A DNA stretch of 24,000 nt from an uncultured bacterium (lineage in GTDB: Bacteria > Bacteroidota > Bacteroidia > Bacteroidales > CAIWKO01), in contig CAIOJS010000266.1 in assembly GCA_903858655.1 (NCBI GenBank), positions 1-24,000 on the forward strand, written 5' to 3'. Positions 7,501 through 11,473 of the stretch are shown here, one piece after another. The notes below the pieces were generated by a model. That model made no database searches, was not told where the DNA came from, and worked only from the letters and a program-made list of their open reading frames with translations. A program made the position numbers and the translations under genes. Positions within the stretch are counted from its first letter, which is position 1. Each line of letters starts with the position of its first letter.

Positions 7501-7917
7501 ATGAAAGTACTAATAATTTGTACAGGCAACACCTGTAGAAGTCAGATGGCAGAGGGATTTTTGAAATCTTTTGATGCGCAACTTGAAGTATATTCTGCAG
7601 GAACCAAAGCGGAGAAGCAAGTCAATCTTTATGCGGTGAAAGCCATGAGTGAGTTGGGCATTGACATCAGCCAACAACATCCGAAACATGTGGATGAGTT
7701 TCTGGGAGTTGATTTTGATTATGTGATTACTGTTTGCGACGGTGCCAAAGAAATCTGTCCGGTTTTCACAGGTAAAGTAAAGCAACGTATGCATATTGGC
7801 TTTGATGACCCTGCCGATGCAAAGGGAAGTGAGGAGGAAATCATGCCGATATATAGAAGGGTGCGGGATGAGATAAAAGAACGGTTTCATACCTTTTATA
7901 TGAATGACATTCAATAG
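7501..7917 (+). CDS. arsC: Arsenate reductase, LMW-PTP family (thioredoxin-coupled type)
   Basis: The P-loop VLIICTGNTCRSQMAEG (CX5R), and VITVCDGAKEICPVF supplying the two downstream Cys, match the S. aureus pI258 ArsC Cys10/Cys82/Cys89 pattern. Confidence 0.93.
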   Translation: MKVLIICTGNTCRSQMAEGFLKSFDAQLEVYSAGTKAEKQVNLYAVKAMSELGIDISQQHPKHVDEFLGVDFDYVITVCDGAKEICPVFTGKVKQRMHIGFDDPADAKGSEEEIMPIYRRVRDEIKERFHTFYMNDIQ

Positions 7918-7987
7918 CAAATGAATAAATAAAACAACGAAGATAATTACATAACAACCTATCAACTGAATACTAAATTTTAAAACA

Positions 7988-8272
7988 ATGGTAAATCAAG
8001 AAGCAAAAGACTGCGGCTGCCAAGATGGATGCTGCGAGCCAAAGAAAAAAAACAAATTATGGATGCAGATTGTATTTGCGCTCATATTTTTAACCGCCTT
8101 ATCCATCATCACTGTGAAACTCGTGGGAAGAGGCGATGACAAAACCATCCTTGGAAAAGACTCTACCTGCACAAAAACCTCTGGCTGCTGCCCGGGATCA
8201 GGACAAAAAAGCTGTGCCAAAACGTCTGATTCCACTAATAAAACCTCTTGTTGTCCTAAAGAAAAAAAATGA
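7988..8272 (+). CDS. Cys-rich single-pass membrane mini-protein (94 aa)
   Basis: N-terminal DCGCQDGCC, then KKKNK, one TM helix (LWMQIVFALIFLTALSIITVKLV), and a Ser/Thr/Lys-rich tail with C, GCCPG, C and SCCP. The stop overlaps the next start (ATGA). I recognise no family. Confidence 0.65.
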   Translation: MVNQEAKDCGCQDGCCEPKKKNKLWMQIVFALIFLTALSIITVKLVGRGDDKTILGKDSTCTKTSGCCPGSGQKSCAKTSDSTNKTSCCPKEKK

Positions 8273-8973
8273 TGCATGAATGGATACAACAAGTCTTGAA
8301 CTCAGATCAAGCAGGGCTTAGCGTTCTCATCGCTGTTTTCTTGTTGGGAATCATCAGCGTGTTCACTTGCGCTTGCAATTTATCTATCATCGGCATCGTG
8401 GCAGCCTATTCGGGCACTCTGGGTTCCACCGGAAAAACAAAAACGATAGTAATGAACGCTTTGTTTTTTTTGCTTGGCTTGGTCATTTCCATGTCAGCGG
8501 TGGGAGGTTTGATAGGCTATGCCAGCGAATTTATCAGTGCCTCTTTTGGCAATTATTGGAAGATAGCCGCAGGCTTGGTTTCGGTATTTTTTGGACTTTA
8601 CATGATGGATTTAGTTCCATTCAAACTGCCTAGTATAACACTAAAATCGTCGAATCGCAAAAGCGGGATGCTATCATCTATACTTTTTGGGTTGACCATT
8701 GGCGGACTCACCTTGGCGAGCAGCGCCTGTTGCAACCCTGTTTTCCCTATCGTTTTAGCTATTTCGTTTGTCAAAGGAAGCTTTGTTTGGGGTATTTTAT
8801 TGATGCTTGCGTTTGCCCTCGGACATGGGATTACACTTACGGCTCTTATCATAGGTGCTGGATTAGGCTTTGGCAAAACTTCAAAAACCTTCTCAACATT
8901 CGGAAAGGTGCTTAAATATGGAGGTGGCGCTATTATGGTTGCTATCGGATTTTATTTTTTGATTACAATTTAA
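8269..8973 (+). CDS. CcdA/DsbD-like six-helix membrane protein with vicinal Cys pairs
   Basis: Topology and Gly-rich helices resemble the cytochrome c biogenesis CcdA/DsbD transmembrane domain. The helix motifs read FTCACNLS and LASSACCNPVFP instead of single Cys-Pro motifs. Confidence 0.75.
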   Translation: MMHEWIQQVLNSDQAGLSVLIAVFLLGIISVFTCACNLSIIGIVAAYSGTLGSTGKTKTIVMNALFFLLGLVISMSAVGGLIGYASEFISASFGNYWKIAAGLVSVFFGLYMMDLVPFKLPSITLKSSNRKSGMLSSILFGLTIGGLTLASSACCNPVFPIVLAISFVKGSFVWGILLMLAFALGHGITLTALIIGAGLGFGKTSKTFSTFGKVLKYGGGAIMVAIGFYFLITI

Positions 8974-8979
8974 TGTAAT

Positions 8980-10011
8980 ATGACAAAACATTACGTAACC
9001 GATGTGATTGGCACAGCGATTGGAAGCGTAGAGCGAGTTTCAACGGTGTGGAGCCGATTAGATATTTTGCAAACAATTCGTGTGCGGTGGTCAATCGGAA
9101 GAATGAATTATTTAGTAACACCTGGAGTTTATGCAGTTGGCAAGCCTGATGCGGATTCTAACATATTTATTAGCGCCAATTTCAAACTAAGTTTCGACCA
9201 TTTGCGGCGAGCCCTTCACGGGATAAACGCCTGGATATTGGTGCTCGATACTAAAGGAATTAATGTATGGTGTGCTGCAGGCAAAGGAACTTTTGGTACA
9301 AAAGAACTTGTCCATCGTATCAGTGAACATCACATAAGCCAACTTGTGAATCATAAAAAACTCATTCTTCCACAGCTCGGTGCTGTGGGTGTTTCGGCTT
9401 TTGAGGTTAAAGATCAAACAGGCTTTAAAGTAATTTATGGACCTGTGGAAGCCAGAGATATTAAACCCTTTGTTGGTACAGGAATGGAAGCCACTCCTGC
9501 CATGCGGAAAATCAATTTTACTATGATTGACCGTTTGAAGTTAATCCCCGTTGAATTGTCTTACGGGCGCTACTACTTATTGCTAATTCCCGCTATTTTC
9601 TTTATCCTTTCGGGACTCAATATTCATGGATATTCTGTGGATGCTGCATGGCAAATAGGCGGTATATCGGTCTTATATTTATTGGTTGCATATCTTTCGG
9701 GATGTGTTATCACACCAATGTTATTGCCTTGGATTCCTTTCCGCAGATTCTCCGTTAAGGGATTAATCATTGGGTGGATATTGGGTGGCGTTGTTTTATA
9801 CCTAACAGGAAGTTTGCTTACCATCTTCGAAATCATTTCATGGCTCTTGATGATGGGCTCACTTTCATCCTTCCTTGCTATGAATTTCACAGGCTCCTCC
9901 ACGTTCACATCCTTATCGGGAGTGCAAAAAGAAATGAAATTGTCATTGCCTTTGCAGATTATTGCTACAGGCATAGGAATTATTGGTTGGATAATCACTA
10001 GATTTATATAA
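8980..10011 (+). CDS. hgcA: Mercury methylation corrinoid protein HgcA
   Basis: Diagnostic cap-helix motif GINVWCAAGKGTFG (Cys98 at nt 9271-9273). Flanking conserved blocks are GRMNYLVTPGVYAVG, AWILVLDTKG, LILPQLGA and VIYGPVEARD. The C-terminal half has about 5 TM helices. Confidence 0.92.
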   Translation: MTKHYVTDVIGTAIGSVERVSTVWSRLDILQTIRVRWSIGRMNYLVTPGVYAVGKPDADSNIFISANFKLSFDHLRRALHGINAWILVLDTKGINVWCAAGKGTFGTKELVHRISEHHISQLVNHKKLILPQLGAVGVSAFEVKDQTGFKVIYGPVEARDIKPFVGTGMEATPAMRKINFTMIDRLKLIPVELSYGRYYLLLIPAIFFILSGLNIHGYSVDAAWQIGGISVLYLLVAYLSGCVITPMLLPWIPFRRFSVKGLIIGWILGGVVLYLTGSLLTIFEIISWLLMMGSLSSFLAMNFTGSSTFTSLSGVQKEMKLSLPLQIIATGIGIIGWIITRFI

Positions 10012-10014
10012 TTT

Positions 10015-10314
10015 ATGATAGAATTAAAATATTTAAAGAACGTTGTTACGCTTCAACTCGATCAACAGAAATGTAATGCATGTCGCATGTGCGTGCTGGT
10101 TTGTCCGCATGAAGTATTTGAAATAAAAGATAAAAAAGCCCATATCATTCGTAAAGATTTATGTATGGAATGCGGTGCGTGCGAAAAGAATTGTTCGGAG
10201 GGAGCCATAAGTGTAAAATCGGGTGTAGGATGTGCTGCAGGCATCATCAACGGCTTGTTGCGCGGCACAGAGCCTACTTGCGATTGCTCATCTAGTGGCA
10301 GTGTTTGTTGCTAA
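10015..10314 (+). CDS. hgcB: Mercury methylation ferredoxin HgcB (2x[4Fe-4S])
   Basis: Two CX2CX2CX3C motifs (CNACRMCVLVCP and CMECGACEKNC), a conserved extra Cys in GVGCAAG (C73) and a C-terminal vicinal pair ...SGSVCC. The gene starts 3 nt after hgcA. Confidence 0.9.
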   Translation: MIELKYLKNVVTLQLDQQKCNACRMCVLVCPHEVFEIKDKKAHIIRKDLCMECGACEKNCSEGAISVKSGVGCAAGIINGLLRGTEPTCDCSSSGSVCC

Positions 10315-10402
10315 AGTATTTAGAAATGAGAGCATTCGACGCTATTAAGCACTCTATTTAAATACGTAATTAGCTCAATTAACCATTTAACTAATAAAAA
10401 CA

Positions 10403-11473
10403 ATGCCATCAAACAAAAGATTAGGTTTTTTAGACCGTTATTTAACCCTATGGATTTTCTTAGCCATGGCGATAGGTGTGCTATCGGGATATTTCTTCCC
10501 TGTCATAGCCCAATTTTGGGAATCCTTAAAATCATCTCCTGAAAGTACAACCAACATACCGATTGCTATCGGTTTAATTGTCATGATGTTTCCGCCTTTA
10601 GCCAAAGTGAAGTACGAGGAATTGGGAGATGTGTTTCGCAATTACAAAGTTTTGTCATTATCTTTAATCCAAAACTGGGTAATAGGTCCCGTGTTAATGT
10701 TTGCGCTAGCAATTGCTTTCTTCAAACTGTTTCCGGGCGAAAACAACGCGAACTTACCTTATATGTACGGCATCATCATGATTGGTTTGGCGCGCTGCAT
10801 TGCGATGGTGATTGTTTGGAACGATTTAGCTAAAGGCGACACGCAGTATGCAGCCGGTTTGGTGGCATTTAATTCTATCTTTCAGGTGTTATTCTTTTCC
10901 GTGTATGCGTATATATTTATTGCTGTATTGCCCGCATGGTTCGGTATCCCAACGAATCATGCCGTTGAGAACATCACGATAATACAGATTGCAAAAAGCG
11001 TTTTCATCTATTTGGGCATACCGTTTATTGCAGGTTTCCTGACTCGTTTTATACTCATTCGCTTTAAAAGCAAAGAATGGTATCATACAAAATTTGTTCC
11101 GAAGATTAGTCCTTTAACCCTTATTGCACTTTTGTTTACCATCATCGTCATGTTTTCCTTAAAAGGAGAAACTATCGTTAAGATACCTCTTGATGTTGTG
11201 ATGATTGCAATTCCGCTGTTGATTTATTTTGTGATTATGTTCTTCGCTTCCTTTTATATGAGCAAAAGGGTAGGGGCAACTTATGGACAATCAGTGACCT
11301 TATCTTTTACAGCAGCGAGCAATAACTTTGAGTTAGCTATAGCGGTGGCGATAGCCATTTTTGGGATGAATTCAGGAGAAGCATTTACAGCGGTGATAGG
11401 TCCTTTGGTGGAAGTGCCGGTGATGATTGCCTTGGTGAATGTAGCATTTTGGTTTAAGAAGAAATATTTTTAA
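10403..11473 (+). CDS. acr3: ACR3-family arsenite efflux transporter
   Basis: [47 protein letters not shown] and [19 protein letters not shown] (conserved Cys) are hallmark Acr3 blocks. About 10 TM helices. Confidence 0.93.

Follow-up and report, generated by a model that had tools for sequence, protein, structure and literature searches.

Prediction of methylmercury (MeHg) production is limited by what is understood of how HgcAB, the corrinoid protein and ferredoxin of mercury methylation, is regulated and what it does natively. The hgcAB genes have been previously described beside arsenic resistance genes. In the accessible parts of the published accounts, they are flanked by acr3, arsC, arsR and sometimes arsM in diverse metagenome-assembled genomes (McDaniel et al. 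2020, mSystems, Fig. 6), and a lake hgcA preceded by arsR, with acr3/arsC nearby, was less expressed in situ (Peterson et al. 2025, EST, Fig. 4c). In Pseudodesulfovibrio mercurii ND132, according to the available text of Gionfriddo et al. 2022/2023, the regulator ArsR2 represses hgcAB, is co-transcribed with it and responds to As(III), As(V) and S-adenosylhomocysteine (SAH); the same authors place Bacteroidetes among the lineages in which ArsR adjoins hgcAB. For Paludibacter jiangxiensis NM7, a Bacteroidota candidate methylator in culture, arsR is likewise reported close to hgcAB. Here we analyse a stretch of 24,000 nt (the window: contig CAIOJS010000266.1 of assembly GCA_903858655.1, positions 1 to 24,000) whose hgcAB genes lie in an operon-like unit of a Bacteroidales-type bacterium. 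An earlier note on this sequence had mentioned ArsR-like regulators beside hgcAB in other lineages, which the three reports document in their accessible parts. It had also proposed that HgcAB is linked to arsenic, a hypothesis which is partly supported by our analysis and which is not new, having been already published and partly tested in ND132.

The loci shown by McDaniel et al. and Peterson et al., as far as the available portions go, are selected examples that resemble the window in that hgcAB adjoins arsR, arsC and acr3. ND132 shares with the window an ArsR-family repressor upstream of hgcAB. Contrary to ND132, where by the accessible account arsR is the sole ars gene next to hgcAB and the ars operons have other locations, hgcAB of the window is enclosed in a full arsC...acr3 unit. 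Compared by description, the window's ArsR2 carries a C-terminal CCxC, as against the four-Cys motif of the ND132 regulator.

The hgcAB-ars unit and its recurrence in Bacteroidota

Eleven genes, all on the + strand, form an unbroken array from 3976 to 11473 (Table 1), with intergenic gaps from arsR2 to acr3 of 30, 6, 0, -13, 4, 70, -4, 6, 3 and 88 nt; the open reading frame (ORF) beyond acr3 (11500-11814) is convergent. The positions, order, common strand and gap range (-13 to 88 nt) reported in the earlier note were reproduced, and its placement of hgcAB between arsC and acr3 in an ArsR-headed unit holds, with hgcA, hgcB and acr3 all scoring above their NCBIfam cut-offs. ArsC scored 133.6 bits against TIGR02691, under the cut-off of 174.3, and its Cys7, Cys79 and Cys86 are spaced as in the catalytic triad, Cys10/82/89 of pI258 ArsC. 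The absence of arsM and of mer genes, also noted earlier, was borne out: a verified ArsM gave no tblastn match in the window, and no mer family (merA, merB, merP, merT) rose above noise among the 20 proteins of region 463-14620 covered by the NCBIfam scan, the ORFs at 14702-23933 having been scanned with Pfam only. The sole mer trace was a 15.8-bit match of CcdA2 to MerE. At Rfam gathering thresholds no riboswitch or other known RNA was found in the gaps, and a terminator scan gave no excess of terminators.

Judged by sequence, HgcA and HgcB of the window are bona fide HgcAB. The cap helix NVWCAAGK occupies residues 95-102 of HgcA, and its Cys98, kept in 111 of 112 relatives, stands at the position of the Co-ligating Cys (C93 in ND132) in the motif N(V/I)WCA(A/G)GK. 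Hydropathy peaks at 199-217, 226-244, 257-289, 282-300 and 321-339, obtained from a crude Kyte-Doolittle scan, fit a C-terminal transmembrane (TM) domain of about five helices. Against the HgcAB-like fusion model HgcA reached only 192 bits (cut-off 285). HgcB, whose gene starts 3 nt after hgcA, has two CX2CX2CX3C motifs (residues 20 and 50), Cys73 and the tail CDC...VCC, with C73, C98 and C99 conserved in 91-97 of 97 relatives. Since both proteins pass the equivalog cut-offs and keep the cap helix, the CX2CX2CX3C motifs, Cys73 and the CC tail, they represent true HgcAB, and the label of HgcAB paralog given previously was wrong.

The arrangement of hgcAB with ars genes is far from chance. One genome per GTDB species was scanned, which yielded 80 hgcA loci (45 from Bacteroidota and 35 from other phyla; loci are given below as L numbers), and all synteny statistics were taken from tblastn matches of the window proteins on these loci, a greedy ORF caller being too noisy for use. 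On the same strand and at most 3 kb from hgcAB, arsC and/or acr3 was found in 34 of 45 Bacteroidota loci (~76%) and in 2 of 35 loci from other phyla (Fisher's exact p = 1e-10), and both genes were nearby in 21 of 45 and 0 of 35, respectively. The adjacency is thus not unique to this genome, a question which the earlier note had left to a comparative neighbourhood check. Among the 24 Bacteroidota loci with full flanks, 19 carried arsC and/or acr3 and 15 carried both. Gene orders vary (arsR-arsC-hgcAB-acr3, arsR-acr3-hgcAB, acr3-CysMini-CcdA2-hgcAB-arsC), and acr3 and arsC each stand before or after hgcAB depending on the locus, with the linkage kept. Since hgcAB stays inside the unit despite the permuted order, selection on linkage is indicated and not a frozen accident. 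A few Planctomycetota loci (L047, L051) have the arsEFG, ABC (ATP-binding cassette) and CcdA2 partners in common with these loci.

In several relatives (L001, L004, L012, L016 and others) Acr3, ArsP and ArsG were 84-93% identical to the window proteins where HgcA was only 60-70% identical; either hgcA is much faster-evolving or the ars genes were exchanged among Bacteroidota. Such a disparity would also suit a scenario in which hgcAB was caught by a mobile ars island and kept by inheritance, being expressed on its own and having no functional tie to arsenic, the ars genes having been exchanged or constrained differently. Insertion of an IS200-like gene and of a four-helix-bundle gene in some clusters, and the position of L117 among restriction-modification and HipA-like genes, are in line with this scenario. 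We nevertheless hold such hitch-hiking to be very unlikely, given that the linkage is kept across species-level lineages of Bacteroidota (34/45) despite several permutations of order, that junctions are tight or overlapping, and that hgcAB lies downstream of the shared operator described below wherever this was found, down to a distance of 83 nt in L022.

Candidate operator and predicted arsenic control

A Bacteroidetes -7 box (TAnnTTTG) occupies 3948-3955, with the start codon of arsR2 (3976) 20 nt farther downstream, a -33-like ATTG at 3925-3928 and a 19-nt spacer between ATTG and box. It stands exactly between the arms TTAATGTCG and CGTCATTAA of a palindrome (Table 1), a layout which resembles the classic autoregulated ArsR operator overlapping its promoter and suggests the same function here. 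No second copy of TAnnTTTG was found on the + strand in any intergenic gap between 3956 and 11322; a sigma-70 promoter scan (44 sites versus 37.6 expected) was uninformative for Bacteroidota. The operator core CGTATNTTTRCG has a single copy in the window, with 0.01 expected. Relatives were searched with a relaxed pattern, CGTA[TG]NTTTRCG, in which one base is loosened. In this form the core was present upstream of hgcA in 42 fetched loci, always on the gene strand and 83-6091 nt away, and only same-strand homologues of window genes were detected between core and hgcA. In L022 it directly precedes hgcA itself, and in one locus it lies upstream of arsM. The claim of an operon-like organisation under an ArsR-type regulator is therefore upheld by tight gaps, by the ArsR gene at the head and by a conserved palindrome over the -7 box.

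Thus, we consider it likely that the unit is an ArsR-repressed, probably As(III)-inducible operon which co-expresses HgcAB with arsenate reduction and arsenite efflux, and in which CysMini and CcdA2 serve as a thiol relay or transporter. Gene identities, synteny, the conserved operator sequence, the cysteines and the hgcAB/arsM alternation are observed directly; co-transcription, the inducer, the role of CysMini-CcdA2 and any physiological methyl acceptor of HgcAB we infer. Transcription would start at the Bacteroidetes-type promoter, whose -7 box lies within the palindrome 3939-3964, the predicted binding site of ArsR2. Binding of a thiophilic metalloid, with As(III) as the likeliest, to the C-terminal CCxC cysteines would release ArsR2, and one mRNA would then extend from arsR2 through the ABC module, rhodanese gene, arsC, CysMini, CcdA2, hgcA and hgcB to acr3. 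With such an mRNA under ArsR2, the prediction for this lineage is that arsenic induces HgcAB expression and that this expression is coupled to arsenate reduction and arsenite efflux. The vicinal cysteines of CysMini and CcdA2 on both membrane faces and within the membrane might form a route of thiol-ligand exchange, either a transporter or a hand-off path.

Several observations weigh against this reading. In 17 loci, of Bacteroidota or CcdA-seeded, that offer 3 kb or more of sequence upstream of hgcA, the exact core is absent there (L003, L005, L084 and L122 are among them). A weak internal promoter may be present in the 70-nt or the 88-nt gap. ArsR2 of the window is without Cys41', which is present in most homologues, and ArsR/SmtB proteins sense many ligands, the ND132 ArsR2 answering to SAH too. 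Finally, the CcdA2 model is of low confidence (pLDDT, the predicted local distance difference test, 61; best PDB match CcdA 5VKV, probability 0.99, TM-score 0.45), and a plain CcdA-like electron-relay role would be equally compatible with this fold. As for the regulator itself, of the C-terminal C107-C108-x-C110 only the last, C110, is common to all homologues, most of which have Cys at three scattered positions instead of CCSC; because these positions vary and only the last Cys is universal, the ligand of ArsR2 is not readable from its sequence. A PDB sequence search returned generic ArsR/SmtB relatives only, which give no assignment of ligand type.

Spacers of some relatives contain short tandem repeats. 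Heptamers of the types (AATCGTA)n and (CTGAAAT)n are located upstream of arsR2 in L022, L023 and L025 and at L026:1-145, where about 20 copies occur, and in L146 an 8-nt repeat of the GAATTTTG type lies between CcdA2 and hgcA. Such spacer repeats could alter expression via slippage.

Cysteine-rich partners and the alternation of hgcAB with arsM

Every accessory protein of the unit has conserved paired cysteines, and cysteines are conserved in ArsR2, CysTail, the FtsX permease, the rhodanese-homology protein, CysMini, CcdA2, HgcA and HgcB. C241-C242 in the periplasmic domain of the FtsX permease was found in 14 of 14 homologues. The rhodanese-homology protein has Asp where the active-site Cys would stand (ADSVGLRS), and its C137xC139 is kept in 17 of 17 homologues; it is unlikely to be a conventional sulfurtransferase. 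The CysTail-FtsX-ATPase trio recurs beside hgcAB, e.g., in L009, L023, L025, L028, L051, L083 and L142.

CysMini and CcdA2 stand directly before hgcA. CysMini consists of an N-terminal DCGC..GCCEP-KKK, a TM helix at 28-46 and a C-terminal SCCPK, which places cysteines on both sides of the membrane. In CcdA2 both canonical cysteines are doubled, as C34xC36 in TM1 and C154C155-N-P in TM4; these cysteines are conserved in 20-23 of 23 sequences and are invariant or nearly so in 28. The family is small (357 clusters, all annotated CcdA). As hgcA begins 6 nt after the TAA stop codon of CcdA2, HgcA of the window is without the N-terminal Cys/Sec (CC/CU) extension which, according to the accessible text of Haft & Gwadz 2022, most HgcA proteins have, and one inference is that CysMini may provide the thiols of this extension in trans to HgcA. 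Fusion of CcdA2 with HgcA by selenocysteine read-through was rejected: the two genes share a frame, the stop codon is TAA, and HgcA could not gain a CC/CU extension at its N-terminus.

Two further observations concern cysteine-rich sequences around these clusters. The N-terminus of CysMini (DCGCQDGCC, 7988-8035), the C-terminus of ArsM (SCGCSPGCC, L117:3290-3326) and the tail of HgcB (CDCSSSGSVCC, 10270-10314) look alike; by tblastn the match lacks significance (E = 0.7), and the pattern recurs. Furthermore, between arsG/rhodanese genes and arsR2 of L027 (3959-6317), and likewise in L006, L008, L009, L025 and L029, lies a set in which a 284-aa DGC-domain/GcvH-fusion protein is joined by DGC-domain proteins of 130 and 150 aa and by a Cys-rich protein of 124 aa, which is another cysteine-rich module linked to hgcAB/ars clusters.

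The CcdA2 alignment served as seed for a metagenome scan which produced a second, CcdA-seeded locus set, again a sample of 80 loci, and CysMini was conserved directly upstream of the CcdA-like gene in both sets. Where at least 450 nt of downstream sequence was available, the gene next after CcdA2 was hgcA in 32 loci, arsM in 10, acr3 in 2, arsC in 1 and another gene in 5. Where the downstream sequence of the CcdA-seeded loci reached 2.5 kb or more, 19 contained hgcAB only, 4 arsM only, 2 both and 1 neither. These are genuine arsM genes (363 bits in L117, NF008823 cut-off 263), and L117 is a minimal four-gene arsR-CysMini-CcdA2-arsM unit with no Hg gene. CcdA2 proteins linked to arsM and to hgcA are 70-88% identical and interspersed in a neighbour-joining tree, and between the hgcA-linked L118 and the arsM-linked L144 nucleotide identity is 84% over 739 nt, ending at the CcdA2 stop codon. 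Hence, behind this membrane pair hgcAB and arsM act as cassettes that alternate with each other. An ORF for a Cys-rich protein of ~62 aa (MNCKNV.EC.CP..TC.NYGKCCAC...), with 80% DNA identity between its copies, is located before arsM in L101 (1840-2026) and after hgcB in L146 (2827-3022).

The alternation is not a simple substitution or strict exclusion, since some loci hold both genes. In L020, L025 and L029 an ArsC::ArsM fusion of 410-411 aa (L020:7732-8967, L025:7615-8850, L029:7731-8963), composed of LMWPc and Methyltransf_31 domains (NF008823 338 bits in L020), lies upstream of CysMini-CcdA2-hgcAB-acr3, and L084 and L143 have the order hgcAB-arsM-acr3. Class I methyltransferase motifs, when searched for near hgcA, turned up solely in the ArsC::ArsM fusions and in one unrelated O-methyltransferase. 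The argument that HgcAB substitutes for a missing arsM is weakened by these five loci.

Whether HgcAB itself could methylate arsenic has to be weighed at this point. Methyl groups would pass from S-adenosylmethionine (SAM), which the literature, in its accessible parts, gives as the methyl donor of HgcAB, to the corrinoid and on to an As(III)-thiolate; methylarsenite (MAs(III)) would exit via ArsP or CcdA2, and Hg methylation would be a side reaction. The slot shared by hgcAB and arsM after orthologous CysMini-CcdA2 speaks for this, as do the window without arsM and with an ArsP_1-family permease next door, and the similar Cys-rich ends of ArsM (CGCSPGCC), HgcB (CDC..VCC) and CysMini (start DCGC..GCC). 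ND132, in the available portion of the account by Gionfriddo et al., gives a divided answer: the wild type tolerated As(V) better than the hgcAB knockout, but the knockout matched it in As(III) resistance, and mono- and dimethylarsenicals were not detected. The coexistence of arsM and hgcAB in L020, L025, L029, L084 and L143 runs contrary to simple redundancy, all residues known to matter for Hg methylation are kept, and no biochemical test of As as a substrate of HgcAB was found in the searchable literature. We regard an arsenic methylase as unlikely. The ArsM-like role envisaged in the earlier note is backed to some extent by the common slot after orthologous arsR-CysMini-CcdA2, and the ND132 findings on methylarsenicals and As(III) resistance count against it.

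A role for CysMini and CcdA2 in handling mercury is likewise conceivable. Vicinal cysteine pairs in TM helices are a hallmark of Mer transporters, and CcdA2 has such vicinal TM cysteines together with its faint MerE match. The regulators would then sense Hg(II) or other thiophiles, the native substrate of HgcAB would be Hg(II), the pair would act in MerT/MerC-like Hg(II) import or MeHg export, and the ars genes would be co-passengers of a multi-metal island. In the literature, as far as it is accessible, HgcAB methylates Hg(II) in vitro and no proteins are assigned to Hg(II) uptake and MeHg export of methylators, which would leave room for such a general soft-metal thiol relay; in the same literature Hg does not induce hgcAB in the strains studied. 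Moreover, the conserved partners are the arsenic-specific genes arsC and acr3, minimal four-gene units without an Hg gene have the same CysMini-CcdA2 before arsM, and no mer genes were found in the window within the scan coverage given above. We hold this account to be very unlikely as well.

Returning to the ArsR-controlled operon, the thiol route predicted for CysMini-CcdA2 would serve whichever soft-metal(loid) methyltransferase follows, HgcAB or ArsM. A bolder version, in which the pair is a dedicated thiol relay for soft-metal(loid) methylation with HgcAB and ArsM as interchangeable cassettes behind it, is put forward only tentatively and we hold it to be rather doubtful. If true, HgcAB of Bacteroidota would act in arsenic detoxification or in making toxic methylated metal(loid)s, and CcdA2 would provide the route, long sought, by which substrate is delivered or product (MeHg or MAs(III)) exported.

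Neighbouring features and comparison with known systems

The region upstream of the unit (463-3789) holds an arsE-to-arsP block, found directly upstream of hgcAB in L004, L012, L015 and L058 too; the ArsP-type permease that the earlier note had recognised there was recovered at the same place. Upstream of this block, the site at 410-429 has perfect 6-nt palindromic arms around a Bacteroidetes-type -7 box (416-423), a design that matches the site at 3939-3964.

Table 1. Genes and candidate regulatory sites of the hgcAB-ars region in the window
Feature	Position	Strand	Remarks
Candidate ArsR operator/promoter of the upstream block	410-429	+	ATTTCG-TAGTTTTG-CGAAAT
arsE-like thioredoxin	463-702	+	TIGR00412 107 bits
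arsR1	704-1003	+	
arsF (first of two)	1054-1593	+	NF040494 95 bits
arsF (second of two)	1600-2028	+	NF040494 93 bits
arsG	2039-2755	+	NF040495 315 bits (cut-off 200)
ArsP_1-family permease	2752-3789	+	PF03773 239 bits
Candidate ArsR operator over the promoter	3939-3964	+	TTAATGTCG-TATGTTTG-CGTCATTAA; palindrome around -7 box
arsR2, ArsR/SmtB repressor	3976-4311	+	NF033788 67 bits (cut-off 55), HTH_5; C-terminal CCSC (Cys107, 108, 110)
CysTail, secreted protein with signal peptide	4342-5163	+	No known family; C-terminal CC (Cys261, 262)
MacB/FtsX-type ABC permease	5170-6390	+	Invariant periplasmic CC (Cys241, 242)
ABC ATPase, partner of the FtsX permease	6391-7056	+	
Rhodanese-homology protein	7044-7496	+	C-terminal CxC (Cys137, 139)
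arsC, putative arsenate reductase of low-molecular-weight protein tyrosine phosphatase type (thioredoxin-coupled)	7501-7917	+	LMWPc 77 bits; Cys7/79/86
CysMini, 94-aa Cys-rich single-pass membrane protein	7988-8272	+	No known family
CcdA2, CcdA/DsbD_TM-fold membrane protein	8269-8973	+	PF02683 (DsbD_TM) 33 bits (cut-off 27.1)
hgcA, corrinoid protein	8980-10011	+	NF040863 425.4 bits (cut-off 275)
hgcB, 2x[4Fe-4S] ferredoxin	10015-10314	+	NF040864 120.9 bits (cut-off 99)
acr3, arsenite efflux permease, last gene of the unit	10403-11473	+	TIGR00832 434.4 bits (cut-off 282.8)

After the operon, at 12440-14620, the window encodes two proteins, one secreted and DUF1573/OS_HP2-like, the other a MauE/DoxX membrane protein whose C-terminal region bears CxxC. 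Homologues of these proteins recur within or just after related clusters, including L084 and L143 after acr3, on account of which the functional unit may extend beyond acr3. Farther downstream, at 19295-22376, come an O-methyltransferase (PF00891, 169 bits) and, after it, a 649-aa radical SAM protein with a sub-threshold B12-binding match (PF02310, 26.8 bits, cut-off 32.1); a 366-aa ORF 8.8 kb downstream of hgcA in L004 has the same SAM-binding motif IVDIGGGQG, the likeness being that of the motif only. Three arrays of 42-bp tandem repeats (2-132, 22592-22832 and 22891-23157, with 3.1, 5.7 and 6.4 copies and 88-92% matches) differ in their consensus units and give repetitive ORFs on both strands.

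The canonical arsR-arsC-acr3(-arsM) operons have ArsR and Acr3 in common with the window and a thioredoxin-type ArsC, to which the putative ArsC of the window would correspond, and relatives of the window have arsM in the position of hgcAB. Contrary to these operons, the window possesses a corrinoid/ferredoxin pair and extra Cys-rich membrane and periplasmic proteins, and corrinoid/ferredoxin methyltransferases replace, or in relatives accompany, the SAM methyltransferase ArsM. CcdA2 shares the fold and Pfam family of CcdA/DsbD, with cysteines in TM1 and TM4, and differs from them by the doubled cysteines (CxC, CC) and by its Cys-rich single-pass partner. It is not the aromatic aminoarsenical efflux permease ArsG, which belongs to the family and is counted with the organoarsenical efflux transporters of ars operons (ArsEFG, Chen et al. 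2019, in the accessible text): CcdA2 scored 28 bits against NF040495 (cut-off 200), and ArsG of the window is a separate gene.

The selenocysteine-assisted organometallic (SAO) locus, in the portion of its description available to us (Haft & Gwadz 2022), resembles the window in that transporter subunits bear CC/CU motifs, that a thioredoxin-like protein and an efflux pump of the ArsP family occur and that there is a link with HgcAB; it differs in that the ABC transporter of the window is of the FtsX/MacB type and that selenocysteine plays no part in the window, given the TAA stop of CcdA2 and an HgcA without CU extension. Membership in SAO was rejected, with 145 bits for SaoA (cut-off 360), 125 for SaoE (325) and 18 for SaoT (65) and no MerB-like SaoL, and so was membership in the Tso system, with scores far under the cut-offs.

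The openly searchable literature, to which our search extended and which leaves subscription-only papers aside, yielded no paper joining hgcA and CcdA. In their accessible parts, McDaniel et al. 2020, Peterson et al. 2025 and related papers report no operator, Bacteroidota-wide prevalence, CysMini-CcdA2, Cys-bearing ABC module or hgcAB/arsM alternation. In one whole phylum, hgcAB with ars genes represents a conserved operon, predicted to be operator-controlled, and not an occasional neighbourhood, and this suggests that, in sediments, peat and guts, the Hg methylation carried out by fermentative Bacteroidota could be modulated by exposure to arsenic. Two uncharacterised Cys-rich membrane proteins are named as constant partners of hgcA, behind which arsM can replace hgcAB. 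Co-localisation of hgcAB with ars genes was thus known before; that it is the rule in Bacteroidota, with a conserved operator, with CysMini-CcdA2 as partners and in alternation with arsM, was unreported in the literature covered.

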